A DNA stretch of 64,000 nucleotides. Origin: Deltaproteobacteria bacterium (lineage in GTDB: Bacteria; Myxococcota_A; UBA9042; PHBI01; JACKFB01). The stretch covers positions 6,231 through 70,230 of the forward strand of contig JACKFB010000014.1 in assembly GCA_020632695.1 (NCBI GenBank), written 5' to 3'. Positions 44,413-56,214 of the stretch are shown here, piece after piece. The translations under genes were made by a program, and so were the position numbers. The notes under the pieces were generated by a model. It was not told where the DNA came from and searched no databases. It worked only from the letters and a program-made list of their open reading frames with translations. Positions within the stretch are counted from its first letter, which is position 1. Each line of letters opens with the position of its first letter.

Positions 44413-47400
44413 CTAATAGATCGGCGGGCACTCCCCGGGCGAGGGGGTCTCGGAGATGATCCAGACATCGACTCCCGTGCGCAGCAGCGAGCTGTTCGAC
44501 TGGGCGTCGTCCACGTGGGGGGTGGCGTAAGGGAGGCCGTCGGGGCCCTTGAACTTGTCGGTGTTGGCGCCGCCGTAGACGACCGCGTCGACCGGCAGCG
44601 TCGCCGACGTGATGGCGGAGGCCTTCACGTGGAAGAGGCCGATGGCGTCGGCGGTGGCCCCGGAGTTCTGGAGGTCGGGGTCGAAGTTCAGCTCCTGGTC
44701 GTAGACGGCCTGACCGTTGGCGACGCTGCTCTTGGGACCGCCGACCACGAAGCAGGCACCCGGGGGCACGACGCCCGCGAGCTGGTAGGTCTGCGTCGCG
44801 TAGCTCCCGCCGCCGGCGCCCAGCGACCACTCGGAGAGGTCCACCGGAGCGGTGGAGCCGTTGTAGAGCCGAACCCACTCGAAGCCGTCGTCGTCGCCGC
44901 TGACGTTGTAGAGCACCTCGGCCAGGAGCAACCCGACGGGCGGCACGTCGATCACCTCCACCGGGAACAGGAAGGGGTCGCCCCCCGCCGTCGCCTTCAG
45001 GGTGCCGGTGCCGGCGGTGGAGCCCGCGACCAGCACGAACTCCGCGGAGAACGCGCCGGCTGGCACCGGCACCGAGGCCGGCAGGTCGAGGAGGCCGCCG
45101 CTGAACTCGAGCGCCACCTCCAACCCCGCCGGGGGGGCTGGGGCGTCGAGGAAGAGCTCGACGGTGACGGCGGTGCCGATGAGCAGCTTCAAGGGATCGG
45201 GCTGGATCTCGACCACGGCGGGCAGATCCGACGGGCTGCGCACCTCGACGGCGGCGGAGACGCTCACGTCATCGAGCGTCGCGGTCAGGGCGACCGGCGA
45301 CTCAGCCGTCGCCGGGGCGTCGAAGCGCAGCTCGGCGAAGGACTCGCCGGCCAGCACGGTGACGCCGCCGCCCACGACGGAGAGCGCCCCCGGCGTCCCG
45401 CTGGTGACGCCGACGAAGGTGTCGGTCAGGGCCGGCCCGGTCAGGCGCACGCGCAGCGGCGGCGCCGTCGGCTGGCCGGTGACCCCCTGATAGATCGTCG
45501 CGAACCCGGGCTCGATCGCGTAGAGCCTGGGCGCCCCGAACACCACGTCGGCCGCGTCGCGGGGCAGCAGCTTGTTGCGGCTCCACGCGAAGCGCAGCAC
45601 GCCAGTGACGCTGGCGAAGCCCTGACCAGCCTGCGGCGCAGGGCTCACGGCGAAGATCGCGTCGTCCACCGGCAGGCCGGGTGCGGTCGGCTGGGGCACG
45701 GCCTGCTCGAGCACCTCGAACTCCCCGATGACGGTCTCGCCCGGCTGACCGGCCGGCGAGGCGTCGACGACGACCAGATCGCTGACGGTGACGAGCACGC
45801 CCTCGTAGGCCAGGGCGTCGCCCCCTCCGGTCTGCACATCGGACGTCTTCACCGGGACCGGCGCCGGCAGGGTCACCCCGGTGTCCACCACCGTGAAGTC
45901 CGCCGACTCCAGCTCGAGCGCGCCGTGGAAGAGCGCGACGGTGCCGCTCAGGTTCACGCGCGCGCCTCGCGGCGGCGTGGTTCCCGACGGCTCGTAGACG
46001 AAGAGCCCCGAGTTCTCGGCGCCCGTCCACCCGTCGCCGGCCGGGTCCATGGACACGAAGTAGCCGCCGGCGCCGACGGCGGTGACCAGCACACCTGAGA
46101 GCGACACCTTCGCACCGACCGCCGCCACGCCGGACTTCACGTCGTAGATCGTGCTCGGGCACGGCGCGCCGTCCGGGTTCGAGTCCAGCGGGCAGGCGTC
46201 GCAGGCGTCGCCGACCTGGTCCTTGTCGCCGTCCTCCTGCTCCGGATTGTAGAGGTTCGGGCAGTTGTCGAGGGCGTTGGCGATGCCGTCGGCGTCCAGG
46301 TCCTTGGGGTCGACCGACGAGCAGGCGGTGGTGTTGGCGTCGAAGGGGCAGGGATCGCAGGCGTCGCCGTCGCCGTCGCCGTCCACGTCGGGCTGGGAGA
46401 GGCCGTCGAGGGGGCGCGGCGGGTTGAACACGTCCGGGCAGTTGTCGACCGCGTCGGCGAACCCGTCGCCGTCGGCGTCACCGGCCGTGGGCACGCCGTC
46501 GAACTCGCCGGGGCGCAGCGGCGTGCAGGTGGGCTCGTCGGGCGGGGCGCCGCAGAAGAAGAGGTCGTAGGTGTTGCTGCCCAGCTCGGTCTTCAGGGTC
46601 GCGGCGCTCTTGCCGAGCTCGCGGGTGGCGCAGATCCGCTTGCCGCGGCCGCACACGTCCATCGTCTCGCAGTCGCCGGGCTCGGTCAGGGCCTCCACGG
46701 TCGCCGCGTCGCCGTAGAGCGCCAGGCCCCCTCGCATCACCAGGGTGACGTCGTCGACGTCGGCCTCCAGCACGGCGCGGTACCCGGCGTGGCTCGTCGC
46801 GTCGAAGATCGCGATGTCGGCGACCTTTCCGACCGACAGGCTGCCGAGCACGTCGCCGAAGCCCAGCAGCTCGGCCGCCGACGACGTGGCCATCGCCACG
46901 AGCTGCGCGTCCGAGAAGTAGCCGTCCCAGTACACCTCGTTCCACGAGCGCGCGCAGGCCAGCTCACGCAGCATGTTCACCGAGCCCGAGGCGGTCCAGT
47001 CGGTGCCCAGCGCCACCAGCGCGCCCAGCCGATCGTACATCGGCGCGTCCGCCGTGAAGCCGTAGAGGGAGGTGTTGGTGCGAGGCGACCACACCAGCCC
47101 GGCGCCCTCGCCGGCCACCATGGCGATGTCGGCCGCGGTCAGGCCGATGCCGTGGATGAGGGCGGTGGTCGGGAAGATGAGGTCGACGCCGCCGGTCTTG
47201 GTGCCCGACGCGCAGAGCACCTCGTTCTGCGCGGAGCTCTCGATGCCCTCCGCCATGTGGGGGACGTAGGCCACCTGGGCGGCGGCCGTCTCGGGATCGT
47301 CGAACGAGTAGGGGGCGCAGGTCTGGGTCAGGGACTTGAAGCTGGCGTCGCCCAGCGGGAAGGTGCTGTAGTCGGCGGCCGCGTGGTCGAGGCCCTCGAG

Positions 47401-48300
47401 GCGGTTGTCCCGGTCCAGGTTGCGCTGGAAGCCGACCTCGGCGCCCGAGCCGAAGAGGCTGGTCGAGCCACCCATCACCTGGCGCATCTCGCCCCAGCCG
47501 TCGCCCAGGGCGTGGCTGTTCTGGACCGTCGGCAGCGCCTTGAAGCCGTTGAGCCCCTTGCGCCACTCGTTGCGGTGGGAGTAGCGGATGGTGCCGTGAT
47601 CGACCGGCTTCATCTGGGTGAAGGTGATGTGGTCGTGGGCGTTGATGAGGCCGGGAGAGACCACCGAGGCGGGGCAGGTCAGCACCGTCGCGCCCGGCGC
47701 CTGGTCGGCGCAGTCGCAGCCCACGCAGGTGATGGTGCCGTCCACGACCAGGACCTGACCGCCCGGCTGGATGCCCGTCGGCAGGAGCAGGTCGCCGCGG
47801 ATGAGGAGCGAGGCGTTGCCCGGGGTCACCGTGCAGGTGCCCGGGGTGCCCGGGAGCGAGGCGCCGCAGGGATCGGGGGCGGTGTCGGTGTCGGTGTCGG
47901 TGTCGGTGGCCGTGTCGGTGGCCGTGTCGGTCGCCGTGTCGGAGGCCGTGTCGGAGACCGTGTCCGGGGCCGTGTCCGAGGCCGCGTCCGAGGCCGTGTC
48001 CGAGGCCGTGTCCGAGGCCGTGTCCGAGGCCGTGTCCGAGGCCGTGTCCGGGGCCGTGTCGGACGTCGTGTCCGGGGCCGTGTCGGACGTCGTGTCCGAG
48101 GCCGCGTCGGACGTCGTGTCCGAGGCTGTGTCGGAGGTCAGGTCGCCCTGGGCGTCGGTGTCCGTCGCGATGATGTCCGCGAGGCTTCCATCGTCGCCGT
48201 CGGCGCGGCAAGCTGTCAGGATCGAACCCAACGCGAGCAGCACCACCGCGCCTGTCACCGTCGCGCCCGTCGAGCGGGCGTGCCGAAGCGTGCACTTCAT
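44413..48300 (-). CDS. Large lipoprotein with acidic TSD linker, amidohydrolase-like domain, thrombospondin type-3 repeats and C-terminal lamin-tail domain
   Basis: The lipobox is LGSILTAC. The (TSD/ASD)n linker spans about 110 aa. The metal-binding-like motif is [14 protein letters not shown]3 calcium-binding repeats are [20 protein letters not shown] and [28 protein letters not shown]. The LTD signature is [37 protein letters not shown]. Confidence 0.8.
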
Positions 48301-48410: not shown

Positions 48411-50435
48411 GTGGCTGACCTCTTCGACCACCGCCCTCGGCTGGCCGACGAGGTCCATGTGCGCGAGTCGTCCGAGGGGCCCCTGCTCTTCCGCACGGGC
48501 AGCCGCCGCACCTTCCTGCTCTCCCAGACCGAGATGGCGGCCGTCGCGTGCATGGACGGATCGCTCACCCTGGAGTCGATCGCCGCCAAGGTGCTGGTCC
48601 GTCACGGCCGCACCAGCTACGCCGGGCTGATCCAGCTCTACCAGTCGCTGGCCGCCGCCGGCTTCCTCTCCGAGCCCGTGCCCCGCCTGGGGGTGCTGGG
48701 CGCGCGCCACCGCACCGGCTGGATCTTCGACCTCCCGCTGGTCGTGGTCCCGGGCTTCGGCCGCCACTCTCCACCCCTGCCAGCCCGGGCCACCGCGCTG
48801 GGCGTGCTCGCCACCACCTCGGCGGTCGCCGCGCTGCTCTCCCTCCCCGCCCTGGTGGCGCTGGTGCAGGCTCCCGCGGCCAGCGCCGCCATCGCCGGCG
48901 TCTGGGAGGCCGCCGTCGTCGCGCTCTACGCCGCCGCGCTCTTCGCCAGCCTCTGCCGCGCCTTGTGCCGGGCCGCCTGGCTCCGCGCCCACGAGGGCAT
49001 CCACACCGACCGCCGCGGCGGACTGCGCCTGCGCAACGGCCTGCTGGCCTTCGACACGGCCGACCCCGACGAGCACCTCCGCCCACCCGGCGAGCGCGCA
49101 TCCCTCGGCCGCGCCGGGCTGCTCGGCCTGGTCGCCGCCGCCGGCATCCTCGGCGCCGCGTCCCTGGCCCTCCCCCCTGACTACGCCAGCGCCGCCCCCT
49201 ACGCGCTGGTGCCCTGGCTGCTCGTCTTCATCGAGCTCTGCCCCTTCGTCCCCGGCTCCGACGGCGCGCGCCTCGCCGCCCCCTCCTCGTCGACCCCCGC
49301 CGCCCGCGCCCGCCTGGTCGCGGCCCTGGTCCAACCGCGCCTCTCCGCCATGGCCGCCGCGCTGCTCCGAGGCGACCGCGCCTCGCTCCGCTCCCTGGCG
49401 TGGCTGGCCACCGCCGTGCTCCTGCCCCTGGGCGCCCCCGGCCCCACCACCGCGGCGTGGGCGGCCAGCCTCAGCGCCTCCGACAACCTGGCCCTCCGCA
49501 TCGCCGGCGCCGTCCCCTTCGTCGCCTGGGGCGCCGTGGGCGTCGTCGGGGTCATCGGCGGCATCATCTCGGTCGCGCGCCGCATCCTGCTCACCGTCGA
49601 GCTGCGCACCGGCGGCTCGCTCCGCCCCCGCACCACCGTCCCGGACGAAGAGGCCGACCGCGTCCTCCTCTCGATGCCCCCGCTCGGCGTGCTCCCCCAG
49701 ACCCGCCGCCGCGGCGAGGCCGAGCGCCTGGTCACCCGCGTGGTCCGACAGGGCGAACGCCTCGGCGGCGACTCCGCGCGCGCGCTCTTCGCGGTCGCCG
49801 TCGGTGCCTTCCGCCTCGAGTGCCCCGACGCGCCCCCCATCGAGTTCGGCCCCGGCGACGTGTTCCTGGGGCGGATGGCGGCGCTGGGCTCCTCCGCCGA
49901 GGCCGACGTGCTCGCCCGCTCCGCCGGCCGCCTGCGCGCGCTCGGCGCCGACGCGGTGGACCGCCTCCTCGGCGAGATCCCCGAAGCTCGCGGCGCCCTC
50001 ACCGAGACCCTGCTCTCGCGGGCCGCGTTGCGCTCCTGCGCCGCCTTCGCCGCCCTGCCCGCCCACGCGCTCGAGGTCCTGCTGACCCACAGCGAGTCGA
50101 TGGTGGTCGCCCCCGGCGCCACCATCGGCGTCGACAGCCACGCCTCCGCCGCGATCTTCCTCATCCGCCGCGGCCGGGCCCGAGCGGCCGGGGACGGAGC
50201 CCTCGCGCGCACAGCCGGCCCCAGCGAGCTGCTGGGCCTCGACCCGCTCTTCCACGGCCACGCGGTCCCGCGCACCTGGGTCGCCATCACCCGCTGCCAC
50301 CTGCTCCGCCTGCCGGTGCGCGGCCTGGCCGACATCCTGCACCGGGCCGCCGGCGTCGGGCTCGCCCTCGAGAGCCACAACCTGGCCGACGCGCGCGCGC
50401 GCCGTCGCCCGCTGGCCGGCGCCGACACCGCATAG
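48411..50435 (+). CDS. Polytopic membrane protein with N-terminal PqqD-like (RRE-like) domain, candidate M50/site-2-protease-like motifs and C-terminal cNMP-binding-like domain
   Basis: The N-terminus [51 protein letters not shown]...[11 protein letters not shown] resembles PqqD. HEGIH (an HExxH) lies in a hydrophobic stretch about 85 aa before [14 protein letters not shown] (LDG-like motif). The C-terminal [13 protein letters not shown]...PGATIG...[14 protein letters not shown]...ELLGL pattern resembles a cNMP-binding fold. Family assignment is tentative. Confidence 0.65.
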
Positions 50436-50570
50436 CGAGTGGTCCGGAGCGATTGTTGTTGATTCGATCCGCGGAGCGGCCGCAGCTTGAAGCTCCCCGC
50501 CGCGACCCTCCCAGGTCGCGCACCGGGCATCGCGGAGGGCGCCTCGAGGGGCCCTCTCGGAGGTGCCTCC

Positions 50571-52106
<1,536 letters not shown>

Positions 52107-52133: not shown

Positions 52134-52982
52134 TCAACCCCGGTCGGCGCTCTCGTCGCGGCGCACCGTCAGCCGCGCGCCGATCTCCAGCTCGAGCTGG
52201 CGCGCCGCGTGCCCGTCGCGCACCGCCACCTCCAGCCACCCCTCGCTGCCGATCACCGCGACCAGGTGCCCCGCCACGACCTGCGCGTAGGTCTCGGCCA
52301 CCACGGCGCTGCGCCCGGCGATCTCGACACGCAGCCCGGCGGGCTCGCCGATCTCCTCGAGCTCGGCGAGCCCGATGTTGCTGATCAGGTTGCCGAAGTG
52401 ATCGATCGAGACGATCTCACCCACCAGGCGCCCGTCCTCGAGCCGGCGCGCCGCGGGCACGTCCAACCCCTGCGGCTCCAGCGAGGGTCCCACCACCTCG
52501 GGCCGCAGGAGCCCCGCCGCCATCGCCGCCGCGGTGGGCGCGAAGATGTCGCGTCCGTGGAAGGTCCGGGCCGTCCGGTCCGGCAGCCACGGGTGCCGCT
52601 GGATGCGCCACGCCGCCTCGATGCCCCCCAGCGCGGCGGCCACCAGGTCGAAGAGCCCATTGTCCGGGCCGACGAAGGCGTGTCCGCCCGCCAGCATCAC
52701 CAGCGGGGCGCGCTCGGTACCGACGCCGGGGTCGATCACGCCCAGGTGCACGGTGCCCGGCGGAAACAACGGCGCCGCAGCCCTCAGCGCGACCGCCCCG
52801 GCGCGGATGTCCTGCGCCGGGATGCCGTGGGCCAGGTCGACGAGCCGCAGGTCGCGGCCGATCGACATCATCACGCCCTTCATCGCGCCCAGATAGCCGT
52901 CGCGCGTCCCGAAGTCGGTGGTGAGGGTCAACACGCCCGAGGCCGCGAAGGCCGGCGTCTCTCGCGTTCCGGGGCTACCCAT
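52134..52982 (-). CDS. SAM hydroxide adenosyltransferase family (DUF62; related to fluorinase/chlorinase)
   Basis: The N-terminal signature is LTLTTDFGTRDGYLGAMKGVMMSI. Length is 282 aa. It overlaps the upstream nupC by 8 nt. Confidence 0.75.
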   Translation of the reverse strand: MGSPGTRETPAFAASGVLTLTTDFGTRDGYLGAMKGVMMSIGRDLRLVDLAHGIPAQDIRAGAVALRAAAPLFPPGTVHLGVIDPGVGTERAPLVMLAGGHAFVGPDNGLFDLVAAALGGIEAAWRIQRHPWLPDRTARTFHGRDIFAPTAAAMAAGLLRPEVVGPSLEPQGLDVPAARRLEDGRLVGEIVSIDHFGNLISNIGLAELEEIGEPAGLRVEIAGRSAVVAETYAQVVAGHLVAVIGSEGWLEVAVRDGHAARQLELEIGARLTVRRDESADRG

Positions 52983-54279
52983 CGACGAACATCAACCCGG
53001 CGACCGCGCCGGTCATCATGGCTGCCAAGGTGCCTCCTATCATCGCTCGCAGTCCCAGGCGGGCGAGGTCGTGGCGGCGCTCGGGGGCGATGCCGCCGAT
53101 GCCGCCGATCTGGATGCCGATGCTGGCGAAGTTGGCGAACCCGCACAGCGCATACGAGGTGATGACGGCCGAGCGCGGGCTCAGGGCCGCGGCGCTGGAC
53201 TGGAGCTCGCCCAGGTGCAGGAAGGCGATGAGCTCGGTCAGGACGATCTTCTCGCCCAGCAGCGTGCCCACGACGCGGGCCTCCGACCAGGGGATGCCCA
53301 TCAGCAGGGCCAGCGGCGAGAAGAGCCAGCCGAAGAGCGCCTGCAGCGTCAGGTCCAGGCCCACCAACGAACCGAGGAAGCCCAGCATCGCGTTGACCAT
53401 CGCGATGACGGCCACGAAGACCAGCAGCATGGCGCCGATGTTCAGGGCGAGCTGGAGGCCCTCCAGGGTGCCGCGGGACAGGGCGTCGATGCCGTTGACG
53501 TCCGGGCGCTCCAGGCGCATCTCGGTGCGGCCCATGGTCGCCGGCACGCCGGTCTCCGGCACCATCACCTTGGCGACGGCCAGGGCCGCGGGCGCGCTCA
53601 TGATGCTGGCGATGACCAGGTGCCCGGCGATGCCGGGGATGTGGCCGAGCACACCCACGTAGATGGCCATGACGCCGCCGGCGATGGTCGCGAAGCCACC
53701 GACCATGACCGCGTTCAGCTCGGAGCGGGTCATGGCACCCACGAAGGGGCGGATGACCAGGGGGGCCTCGGTCTGGCCGACGAAGATGTTCGCCGCCGCC
53801 GACAGGCTCTCGGCGCCGCTGGTGCCCATGGTGCGCTGCATGATGCGGCCGAAGATGGCGACCACCCACTGCATCAGGCCGTAGTGGTACAGCACGGCCA
53901 TCAGCGCCGAGAAGAAGACCACGGTGGGCAGCACCCAGAAGGCGAGCGTCTTGAGCGGCGGTGAGATGTGGCCGATGTAGGTCGCGGTCTCCCGGCCGCC
54001 GTCGCGCAGCACGGTGATCTCGTGCGGCTCGATGGTCTGGAAGAGGAAGTCGCTGCCGGCCTCGGAGAACGAGAGCAGCCGGTGCACGCCGGTGTCGACG
54101 CCCTGGAAGAGGAGCTGGCCGGCGTCGGGCAGGAGGATGACGACGCCGAGCATGAGCTGGAGCGCGACCCCCCAGAGCACCGGGCGCCAGCGAACCGCCC
54201 GCCGATCGGTGGACAGCAGCCACGCGACGAGCACCAGCCCGACCAGCCCGAGGGCGGAGAAGAGTCGTTCCACGAACAC
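52975..54279 (-). CDS. nupC: Concentrative nucleoside transporter (NupC/CNT family)
   Basis: It is 434 aa and polytopic. The GFATIAGGVMA and GGIGGIAPERR regions are typical of the CNT family. Confidence 0.8.
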   Translation of the reverse strand: MFVERLFSALGLVGLVLVAWLLSTDRRAVRWRPVLWGVALQLMLGVVILLPDAGQLLFQGVDTGVHRLLSFSEAGSDFLFQTIEPHEITVLRDGGRETATYIGHISPPLKTLAFWVLPTVVFFSALMAVLYHYGLMQWVVAIFGRIMQRTMGTSGAESLSAAANIFVGQTEAPLVIRPFVGAMTRSELNAVMVGGFATIAGGVMAIYVGVLGHIPGIAGHLVIASIMSAPAALAVAKVMVPETGVPATMGRTEMRLERPDVNGIDALSRGTLEGLQLALNIGAMLLVFVAVIAMVNAMLGFLGSLVGLDLTLQALFGWLFSPLALLMGIPWSEARVVGTLLGEKIVLTELIAFLHLGELQSSAAALSPRSAVITSYALCGFANFASIGIQIGGIGGIAPERRHDLARLGLRAMIGGTLAAMMTGAVAGLMFVDG

Positions 54280-54339: not shown

Positions 54340-56214
54340 TCACACGGCGAAGGCCTCGCGCCACAGCTCGACCAGGACCAGGGCGAAGACCTGGCGGCCG
54401 GCGAGGAAGGGCTCGCGGTCGGCGCGGTCCAGGAGGCGGGCGACGGCCTCGGGGCGGAACACCCCCTGGCGGCGGACGCGCTCGGGGCTGAGCAGGTCGC
54501 GGGCCATGGCCGGCCAGCGGGGCCCGAAGAGCGCCAGCGGCACCCGCACCGGGCCCTTCGGGCGGCGAGCCAGACGGGGCGGGAGGCGCCGGGAGGCCAG
54601 GCGGCGCAGGAGGCGCTTCTCGACGGGGGGCAGCAGGCCCACCTTGAACGCGCGGGCCAGGGGCAGGATGGCCGCGACCACCGCGTCGTCGAGGAAGGGG
54701 TAGCGGGCCTCGACACCCCAGGCCATGGCGATGCGGTTCTCGCGGCCCAGGTGGTAGCCCGGCAGCCAGTCGGTCAGGTCACGGTCGATGAGGCGGTCCA
54801 GCAGCGCGGCGGGAGCCGGCTCGGGGGCCCGCGGGGCGCGCGGCGGCGAGTCGAGGGTCTCGGCGAAGTCCGGGGTGTAGAGCGCCGCGCGGCCGGCGGG
54901 GTCGAAGAGCGAGGTCAAGGCCTCGACGCGCGCGTTCAGCGAGGGCGAGGTGAGCGCGGTGGCCAGGCGCGCCCGTCCGGCGGGGTCGGCCAGGGCCCCC
55001 GGGTAGGGGCCGAGGCGGCGCATCAGCTCGGCAGGGACGAGGCGCAGCGCCAGGGCGGCGGCGCTGGCCCAGCGCGGGTGGCGGGCCGCGCGGTCGAGGA
55101 GCTGCTGGTGCGGGTAGCTGCCGAAGAGCTCGTCGGCGCCCTCGCCGCACAGCACCGCCTTCACCTCACGCGAGGCCTCGCGGGCCAGGGCCCACAGGCC
55201 GATGACGTCGGGATTGGCGACGGGCTCCTCCATCGCCGCGGCGATGGCCGGCAGGGCGTCCAGGTCCTCGGGCCCCAGGCGCACCGGGCGCCACGGGCCG
55301 CCGCTGAGCGCCGCGGCCTGCTCGGCGTAGGCCAGCTCGTCCTCGCTGGGGTCGTAGCCGTGAGAGAAGGCCACCGCGCCGGGGCGCGCCCGCCCCGCGG
55401 CCGAGGCGATCATCGAGGAGTCCAACCCGCCCGAGACGTAGAGCCCCACCGGCGCCTCGCCGTGGCACAGGCGCAGCGCGGTGGCCTCGTCCAGCGCGCG
55501 CTCGAGCGCCCCCACCGCCTCGTCGAGCCCGCCGGCGGGCGCGGCGCCGCTGCCCGAGGCGACCGGGCGATACCAGCGCTCCACCTGACCGCCGCCTCGG
55601 GCGTCCATCAGCAGGCGCCCACCCGGCGGCAAGGGCTCCAGCCCGGCGAAGAGGCTGCGCGCGGAGCCCACGTGGCGCTGGTCCAGGTAGTGGTCCAGGG
55701 CGGCCGGGTCCATGCGCCGGCCGAGCGCGGGCAAGGCCAGCAGCCCCTTGGCCTCGGACGCGAAGGCCGCCCCCTGGGCGCCGCGCCAGAGCATCAGCGG
55801 CGCGATGCCGAAGCGGTCGCGCGCCACCAGCATCCGCTTCTCGCCGCCGTCCCAGAGCGCGAAGGCGAAGAAGCCGCGCAGCCGGTGCACCAGGTCGGGC
55901 CCCCAGGCGCGGTAGCCGTGCAGGATGACCTCGACGTCGCAACCGGTGGTGAAGCGCGCGCCCCCGGCCCGCAGCTCGTCGCGCAGCGCGTCGTGGTTGT
56001 AGATCTCGGCGTTGGCGACCAGCGCCAGCTCCCCGTCCAGCATCGGCTGCGCCCCGTCGCCGGGCGCCACGATCGCCAGCCGCGCCGCCCCCAACGCCAC
56101 CCCGGGGGCGCGATACACGCCGCGCCCGTCGGGGCCGCGGTGGCGCAGCGCCTCCACCATCGGCTCGATGGCCTCGGCGGCGGCAGGGCCCAGCACGCCC
56201 GCGATGCCACACAT
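54340..56214 (-). CDS. asnB: Asparagine synthetase (glutamine-hydrolysing) family amidotransferase
   Basis: MCGIAGVL carries the N-terminal Cys nucleophile. The PP-loop motif is SGGLDSS. Length is 624 aa. It begins 4 nt downstream of the epimerase gene stop. Confidence 0.85.
   Translation of the reverse strand: MCGIAGVLGPAAAEAIEPMVEALRHRGPDGRGVYRAPGVALGAARLAIVAPGDGAQPMLDGELALVANAEIYNHDALRDELRAGGARFTTGCDVEVILHGYRAWGPDLVHRLRGFFAFALWDGGEKRMLVARDRFGIAPLMLWRGAQGAAFASEAKGLLALPALGRRMDPAALDHYLDQRHVGSARSLFAGLEPLPPGGRLLMDARGGGQVERWYRPVASGSGAAPAGGLDEAVGALERALDEATALRLCHGEAPVGLYVSGGLDSSMIASAAGRARPGAVAFSHGYDPSEDELAYAEQAAALSGGPWRPVRLGPEDLDALPAIAAAMEEPVANPDVIGLWALAREASREVKAVLCGEGADELFGSYPHQQLLDRAARHPRWASAAALALRLVPAELMRRLGPYPGALADPAGRARLATALTSPSLNARVEALTSLFDPAGRAALYTPDFAETLDSPPRAPRAPEPAPAALLDRLIDRDLTDWLPGYHLGRENRIAMAWGVEARYPFLDDAVVAAILPLARAFKVGLLPPVEKRLLRRLASRRLPPRLARRPKGPVRVPLALFGPRWPAMARDLLSPERVRRQGVFRPEAVARLLDRADREPFLAGRQVFALVLVELWREAFAV

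Follow-up and report, generated by a model that had tools for sequence, protein, structure and literature searches.

A putative non-catalytic site-2 protease homolog with a RiPP-recognition-like domain and tandem CNB-like domains in a rare Myxococcota family

The window analyzed here is a 64,000-nucleotide stretch of contig JACKFB010000014.1 (positions 6,231 to 70,230 of the forward strand) from the Deltaproteobacteria bacterium assembly GCA_020632695.1, assigned to Myxococcota_A in GTDB. It encodes a 674-aa membrane protein whose modules follow one another in the order ribosomally made, post-translationally modified peptide (RiPP) recognition element (RRE; PqqD-like) fold, six-helix site-2 protease (S2P; M50) fold core, and two cyclic-nucleotide-binding (CNB)-like domains (Table 1). 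The open reading frame (ORF) is real and conserved; its G+C content at third codon positions was 0.93, typical of credible genes in the ~74% G+C window, and its orthologs, with 38–68% identity over the full length, retained an intact full-length frame and ~150 invariant columns. The GTG start was favored over the shorter start of the 100%-identical cluster P0001 because the alignment displayed an LFDxRPxL motif at residues 4–11 that is kept in the orthologs.

Hydropathy and AlphaFold2 (AF2) modeling placed ~6 hydrophobic helices between residues 125 and 400, in agreement with a first-pass annotation that was made from the sequence alone and described a membrane protein. A first AF2 model built from eight close sequences had a predicted local distance difference test score (pLDDT) of 63 and was poor outside the CNB region, and a second model of residues 1–405, built from a 27-sequence alignment over all clades, reached a mean pLDDT of 90.6 and a predicted template modeling score (pTM) of 0.89. 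A Foldseek comparison of this second model ranked MjS2P first and gave RRE probabilities of 0.97–1.0, with E-values >0.1. The N-terminal domain has the RiPP-recognition/PqqD fold, and the membrane core, which adopts the S2P fold, shares homology with intact M50 proteins whose architecture is identical. The PqqD-like N-terminus of the first-pass annotation was therefore borne out as a winged-helix fold of three strands and three helices but not as a family assignment; membership of PqqD by sequence was rejected because Pfam PqqD (PF05402) matched 0 of 58 superfamily members at E-values up to 1 despite the matching fold, and the isolated N-terminal 100 residues had no PqqD match at E-values up to 10. 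An NCBIfam scan of the 674-aa protein returned no match, Pfam returned cNMP_binding only, whether the protein was scanned entire or in thirds, and a sequence search of the PDB returned CNB domains only.

The family formed by the window clade is very rare. A word-indexed search of 5.8 billion proteins identified eight relatives, all full length with 40–100% identity and, where named, from Myxococcota metagenome-assembled genomes (MAGs), and when 185,579 species, each represented by one genome, were scanned, the clade was found at three loci, all in Myxococcota MAGs. An exhaustive HMMER search with the N-terminal 412 residues against 1.84 billion cluster representatives gave only 18 matches in three groups. 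Besides the window clade, these were a clade of equal length and architecture but more distant (P0010–P0018, P0022, and P0023) and two short proteins (P0020 and P0021) with intact HEISH/HELGH and NL[NI]PLLELDG motifs, of which P0021 reached the Pfam Peptidase_M50 threshold. A second profile search that included P0020 and P0021 added 111 further clusters (P0024–P0134) of ~720 aa, mostly from Actinomycetota MAGs, with precomputed Pfam M50 and cNMP_binding matches and the automatic annotation "CRP-like cAMP-binding protein/Zn-dependent protease." Pfam Peptidase_M50 (PF02163) matched 44 of the 58 superfamily members, mainly from this intact clade, and did not match the window protein at E-values up to 10. 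The architecture had been described on first pass as not recognizably characterized; its three-part layout was confirmed, but it is not unique, as >100 clusters combine the N-domain, an intact M50 core, and two CNB domains.

An hhalign comparison between the window clade and the intact M50-CNB clade (probability 97.9%, E-value 4e-13, 304 columns) upheld the earlier M50 assignment as a statement of homology and set the register of the former zinc site, with the first His at R183, the catalytic Glu at A184, and the second His at R187; MAFFT gave the same register. The 92 residues from R183 to E275 equal the spacing between HExxH and the second motif in the intact clade, where HE[LMTS][GAS]H was found in 111 of 111 actinobacterial relatives and NL[VI]P[LM]LELDG started exactly 92 residues after it in nearly all of them. 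The site was R-[GAT]-x-x-R in all 22 sequences of the window and distant clades (the Arg-Arg clades) that cover the HExxH position and again in 13 further distant-clade members found later, and HExxH was absent from the homologous site in all of 36 sequences of the two clades. As R183-A-L-C-R187 aligns with H-E-x-x-H, both zinc-ligand His residues and the catalytic Glu are, on the aligned sequences, gone from the window protein.

The candidate S2P motifs proposed in the first-pass annotation were only partly sustained. Its HEGIH lies 11 residues (three helical turns) C-terminal of the true HExxH position and coincides in the alignment with "HYGRR", a segment located after HExxH in the intact relatives. 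The string was restricted to the window protein and its identical cluster P0001, the corresponding segments of the orthologs reading AHDVHP, RHEAPL, GRTSEP, ARGLPP, and TIGSPR, and a HEGIH-like string is expected by chance in no more than ~1.3–1.5% of composition-matched sequences, a rarity that explains why it drew notice. Loss of HEGIH conservation had been named beforehand as a refutation, and the alignment displayed no ortholog that carries it; HEGIH is best read from this alignment as a lineage-specific coincidence and not as a protease motif. The SDG motif, on the other hand, is truly homologous to the S2P NxxPxxxxDG motif, residues 275–288 aligning with NL[VI]P[LM]LELDG of 100+ intact relatives with D284 (the third-ligand Asp) and G285 kept and Asn replaced by Glu (E275). 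The SDG aspartate, whose conservation was also to be checked, was invariant in the clade together with E275, L276, C277, P278, G285, and L288. Positions 275/284 were E/D, D/D, N/D, or D/N and never N/N across the Arg-Arg members readable at both, and the position of the catalytic Glu held a small residue (Gly or Ala) in Arg-Arg members. The metagenomic Arg-Arg protein P0022 (798 aa) carried an extra N-terminal zinc-ribbon domain and a more degraded second motif (NLCVFFKSDL, with Pro replaced by Val and Gly by Leu), features that suggest continued drift from a protease ancestor.

Directly after the motif helix, the AF2 model displayed a hairpin with strands at residues 202–208 and 211–217, which, judging from the RseP and SpoIVFB structures, we regard as the counterpart of the membrane-reentrant hairpin that binds substrate in S2Ps (the MRE beta-loop of RseP). 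Its residues G204, L205, R206, L207, R208, G210, L211, and L212 were invariant in the window clade, and G204 and G210 were nearly invariant over the whole superfamily. The Arg pair, the hairpin, and ELCP..DG were all invariant in the full-length orthologs. From the positive-inside pattern and the even helix count, we infer a cytoplasmic location for the RRE-like domain and the CNB-like domains as well as for the former active site.

The C-terminal cNMP-binding-like domain of the first-pass annotation was confirmed by Pfam cNMP_binding (E-value 6.4e-11 at 42.5 bits, where the cutoff is 27.5, in two stretches) and consists in fact of two tandem domains. A profile search of the PDB placed these at residues ~416–521, where the CNB of PKA-R was matched, and ~527–658, and Foldseek of the C-terminal half of the first model matched the CNB-A/B of PKA/PKG regulatory subunits (E-value 1e-10, 250–285 columns); trypanosomatid PKA-R was also among the structural matches of the tandem, and the weak best PDB sequence matches of the window protein alone were KCNH CNB-homology domains. 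The cyclic-nucleotide contacts differ across the superfamily, the intact actinobacterial clade having canonical cassettes in both domains (FGELGLL..PRAATV and FGEVALL..PRTATV), the distant Arg-Arg clade a canonical cassette in the second domain only, and the window clade in neither. CNB-A of the window protein has none of the cassette contacts (Gly-Glu to the ribose 2'-OH; Arg-Thr/Ser-Ala to the phosphate), and the CNB-B cassette keeps the Gly, replaces Glu by Leu, and has a two-residue insertion and an Arg whose position holds Gln in P0002 and Leu in P0008. The pocket residues that were to be checked for conservation were thus not conserved in the window clade; the CNB fold call is sound, and cAMP/cGMP binding appears doubtful from these residues. 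Not every CNB fold binds a cyclic nucleotide, examples being the CNB-homology domains of KCNH channels and trypanosomatid PKA-R, which binds nucleosides.

The gene is divergent from a giant lipoprotein gene and lies upstream of an alpha/beta-hydrolase lipoprotein-like ORF with a weak DLH-like match, both as described on first pass (Table 1). The amidohydrolase lipoprotein was divergent upstream at all three loci with an identifiable upstream gene (L001, L002, and L010/L011/L012; 38–68% identity), the upstream gene of L008/L009 being cut at the contig end. SAM_HAT (S-adenosylmethionine [SAM] hydroxide adenosyltransferase) was downstream at all orthologous loci (in L010 for L010–L012), Nucleos_tra2 followed it wherever the contig reaches (L001, L002, and L008/L009; in L010–L012 the genes after SAM_HAT are cut at contig ends), and the immediate downstream gene varied between DLH-like, TonB_C, and none. 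These conserved neighbors may be tied to the gene by function or may simply mirror an inherited order of genes, and the clustering of the lipoprotein, SAM_HAT, and NupC around the gene hints at a nucleoside-scavenging theme. The lipoprotein and the DLH-like ORF each carry a long acidic low-complexity repeat tract just after the signal peptide (TSDTASD and ETETGAE repeats, respectively). Other neighbors include a kinase and epimerases, the outer genes being ordinary, and no RiPP enzyme, cyclase, CRP regulator, or defense gene was found among the neighbors in the window.

Small ORFs in the flanks had been suggested as candidate substrate peptides, and the search gave no independent small ORF, hence no such candidate, in the 110-bp upstream and 51-bp downstream spacers. 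A role in anti-phage defense as a Pycsar/CBASS-type CNB effector was rejected because PADLOC gave no match for the window protein or its neighbors, the relatives being matched via the CNB domain alone. The asparagine-synthase homolog 4 kb from the RRE-like domain was considered as a lasso-peptide cyclase, and this was set aside given its intact amidotransferase domain and ordinary neighbors; a B2 protease, a precursor, and a transporter are all missing beside it.

Two further small ORFs were observed at the loci of relatives. In the distant Arg-Arg clade from marine MAGs, a ~124-aa ORF sits at the stop codon of the pseudo-S2P gene and was kept in three of three loci. Its product begins with a short hydrophobic stretch and ends in a domain with a weak GspG-like (T2SSG) match (Pfam E-value 4.5e-5 in L003), and tblastn with this partner found nothing credible in the window. 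In Actinomycetota, the intact RRE-M50-2xCNB gene is followed 20–35 bp downstream by a conserved ~70-aa Cys-rich ORF at three of three loci, with a CRP-family regulator within ~2 kb (L016–L018) and, in L017, a class III cyclase-AAA-TPR protein. The Actinomycetota locus looks like an uncharacterized module in which an intramembrane protease is gated by cyclic nucleotides and accompanied by a candidate substrate or partner. The 51-bp spacer downstream of the window gene leaves no room for the Cys-rich ORF, and no sequence search aimed at this ORF was made in the window.

Table 1. Coordinates of the gene, its parts, its neighbors, and the small ORFs at loci of relatives (window positions unless a locus is named).
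Feature	Position	Strand	Basis or remark
Whole gene, 674-aa RRE-like/putative pseudo-S2P/tandem CNB-like membrane protein	48411–50435	+	ORF, GTG start
RRE/PqqD-like winged-helix domain, residues ~9–88, three strands then three helices	48435–48674	+	
S2P-like transmembrane core, residues ~125–403; helices 130–153, 165–195, 226–251, 256–275, 323–340, 360–403	48783–49619	+	
R183-A-L-C-R187, position homologous to HExxH	48957–48971	+	MAFFT and hhalign register
HEGIH look-alike, residues 194–198, cytoplasmic end of helix	48990–49004	+	Lineage-specific, out of register
Beta-hairpin directly after motif helix, residues 202–217	49014–49061	+	AF2 model, clade invariance
NxxPxxxxDG homolog, residues 275–288, D284 kept, Asn to Glu (E275)	49233–49274	+	Alignment
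First CNB-like domain, residues ~416–521, degenerate phosphate-binding cassette	49656–49973	+	PDB profile search
Second CNB-like domain, residues ~527–658	49989–50384	+	Pfam cNMP_binding, Foldseek
Divergent 1295-aa giant lipoprotein: deaminase-type amidohydrolase, thrombospondin-3 repeats, lamin-tail domain	44413–48300	-	Pfam
DLH-like alpha/beta-hydrolase lipoprotein-like ORF, downstream of the gene	50487–52106	+	Weak match
SAM hydroxide adenosyltransferase, convergent	52134–52982	-	Pfam SAM_HAT_N/C
NupC-type nucleoside transporter, convergent	52975–54279	-	Nucleos_tra2
Asparagine-synthase homolog (AsnB), intact N-terminal glutamine amidotransferase domain	54340–56214	-	MCGI start
~124-aa ORF, distant clade	L003 4457–4837; L004 9085–9456; L007 9082–9456		4-bp overlap (L003, L004), 2-bp gap (L007)
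~70-aa Cys-rich ORF, intact clade	L016 8335–8553; L017 8148–8357; L018 7191–7406		MDCWHCRxTAVGxCRFCGRxxCEDH...EDALxCGAC

With moderate confidence, the gene is interpreted from these alignments and models as a probable non-catalytic descendant (pseudoprotease) of an RRE-fused S2P lineage, because S2P homology, the RRE and CNB folds, loss of the zinc His residues and the catalytic Glu, and strong purifying conservation coincide in one protein. Such a protein would be unable to bind the catalytic zinc or activate water and would not cleave. R183 and R187, one helical turn apart, may fill the space once held by the metal through pairing with E275 and D284, an arrangement that would keep the two motif helices packed and that agrees with at least one acidic residue at 275/284 in all readable Arg-Arg members and with the small residue (Gly or Ala) in place of the catalytic Glu. 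The conservation of the RRE-like domain and the hairpin suggests that these could remain able to capture, by strand addition, a partner's extended peptide or transmembrane segment. In that case the protein might be a binder, holder, or regulator embedded in the membrane, in the manner of iRhoms and plant EGY3, with the CNB-homology pair as a cytoplasmic regulatory or assembly module whose ligand, if any, is probably not cAMP/cGMP.

Several points weigh against this interpretation. The Arg–acid pairing is one that we infer from homology with the zinc site, no partner or substrate emerged from the analysis, and retained peptide binding by the RRE-like domain is conjecture given the lack of RiPP genes and small ORFs nearby. 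The Pfam/NCBIfam models for M50, PqqD, and the daptide protease all miss the window protein, the S2P and RRE assignments coming from profile-profile and structure comparison through relatives, and the membrane core may have been repurposed for a non-binding role such as transport.

That last idea in its explicit form, a core acting as a ligand-gated channel or transporter with the Arg/acid residues as a polar path and the CNB domains gating it, possibly in response to a nucleoside and not to cAMP, with a link to the conserved neighboring nucleoside transporter, SAM-to-adenosine hydrolase, and deaminase-like surface amidohydrolase, is considered unlikely. CNB domains commonly gate channels and transporters (HCN, KCNH, MloK1, and SOS1 were matched), trypanosomatid PKA-R proteins with altered cassettes that bind guanosine or inosine were among the structural matches, and SAM_HAT, NupC, and the amidohydrolase lipoprotein stay syntenic with the gene across the orthologous loci; however, no transporter with the S2P fold is known, no transporter fold scored above chance in the structure comparison of the membrane-core model, related MAGs may simply have inherited this gene order, and the cassette Glu that contacts ribose is missing too. 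Less probable still is the active zinc metalloprotease of the first-pass annotation, in which HEGIH and D284 would form the metal site, with the RRE-like and CNB-like domains as its gates. In its favor, the Asp motif is kept, intact relatives of identical architecture exist, and the window protein does contain an HExxH string, one that composition alone would be unlikely to yield; yet HEGIH is missing even from orthologs with 65–68% identity, it sits three helical turns past the homologous site at the cytoplasmic helix end, and the homologous site itself is Arg-Ala-x-x-Arg in all clade members. We give equally little credence to a decaying, functionless remnant of a protease gene, a view to which the joint degeneracy of the catalytic motif and the cNMP contacts might lead, but which conflicts with a frame intact at full length in all orthologs, with invariant columns that include the Arg pair, the hairpin, and ELCP..DG, with codon bias typical of real genes, and with the persistence of the Arg-Arg state in a second, more distant clade.

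Returning to the pseudoprotease interpretation, a more far-reaching version can be offered as speculation, which we regard as improbable in its full form. The clade would be an S2P pseudoenzyme family whose zinc site was rebuilt as a buried Arg-Arg/Glu-Asp ion-pair cluster, serving as a membrane receptor under ligand control for a peptide or transmembrane partner, and whose degenerate tandem CNB domains may sense a nucleoside instead of cAMP and may control the nucleoside-scavenging neighbors (the deaminase-like lipoprotein, NupC, and the SAM-to-adenosine hydrolase).

In eukaryotes, pseudoenzymes derived from intramembrane proteases have important regulatory roles (iRhoms and EGY3), and no described bacterial S2P pseudoenzyme was found in the literature. 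The superfamily offers a natural pair in which the same four-module architecture occurs with an intact zinc site in Actinomycetota and with Arg for His in Myxococcota and marine deltaproteobacterial MAGs, permitting direct tests of the non-catalytic parts of an S2P, namely the RRE domain, the substrate-binding hairpin, and the regulatory domain. The intact relatives look like cyclic-nucleotide-gated, peptide-recognizing intramembrane proteases, a signaling link not found in the literature searched; searches for S2P combined with CNB, cNMP-binding, or cAMP-binding domains gave nothing relevant, including on P0024–P0134. For annotation, the locus illustrates that an HExxH string can mislead even in a true M50 homolog.

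Among known systems, the regulatory subunits of PKA and PKG share the tandem CNB-A/B fold with the window protein but differ in that the window clade lacks the cassette Glu and conservation of the Arg and has these domains fused to a membrane protein instead of a kinase regulator. S2Ps of the SpoIVFB/MjS2P type also have a C-terminal cytoplasmic nucleotide-binding domain (structures 8vjl and 3b4r); this is a CBS domain instead of a tandem CNB, and these proteases are catalytically intact and without an RRE. The iRhoms are rhomboid pseudoproteases that have lost the catalytic motif and remain conserved and functional. The chloroplast protein EGY3 of Arabidopsis is an accepted S2P pseudoprotease without HExxH (PMC10978774). 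Compared by description and not by sequence, iRhoms and EGY3 resemble the window protein as intramembrane-protease homologs still conserved after loss of the catalytic motif, and differ in being eukaryotic, in lacking RRE and CNB domains, and in having no reported Arg-for-His replacement.

The closest in layout are P0024–P0134, with an identical domain order (RRE-like, S2P core, and two CNBs) and a colinear alignment, from which the window protein differs in that they keep HExxH, NLxPLLELDG, and canonical FGE...PR[AT]AT in both CNBs and adjoin the ~70-aa Cys-rich ORF and a CRP regulator. MpaP/DapP is an RRE-dependent intramembrane S2P that removes the daptide leader peptide (bioRxiv 10.1101/2023.03.08.531785; NCBIfam NF041824) and, like the window protein, has an N-terminal RRE fused to an S2P membrane core. 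The intact relatives match NF041824 over almost the whole model (E-values 1e-44 to 1e-48; 151–166 bits against a cutoff of 300 bits) and give a further match to the model of the YydH/LiaK epipeptide protease. P0018, a pseudo-clade member, matches NF041824 through its N-domain with an E-value of 1e-7, and the window protein itself has no match to NF041824. Unlike MpaP, the window protein is without HExxH, has two C-terminal CNB-like domains, and lies outside any RiPP cluster. The fusion of an RRE to an S2P is thus already known, and MpaP is the closest characterized relative.

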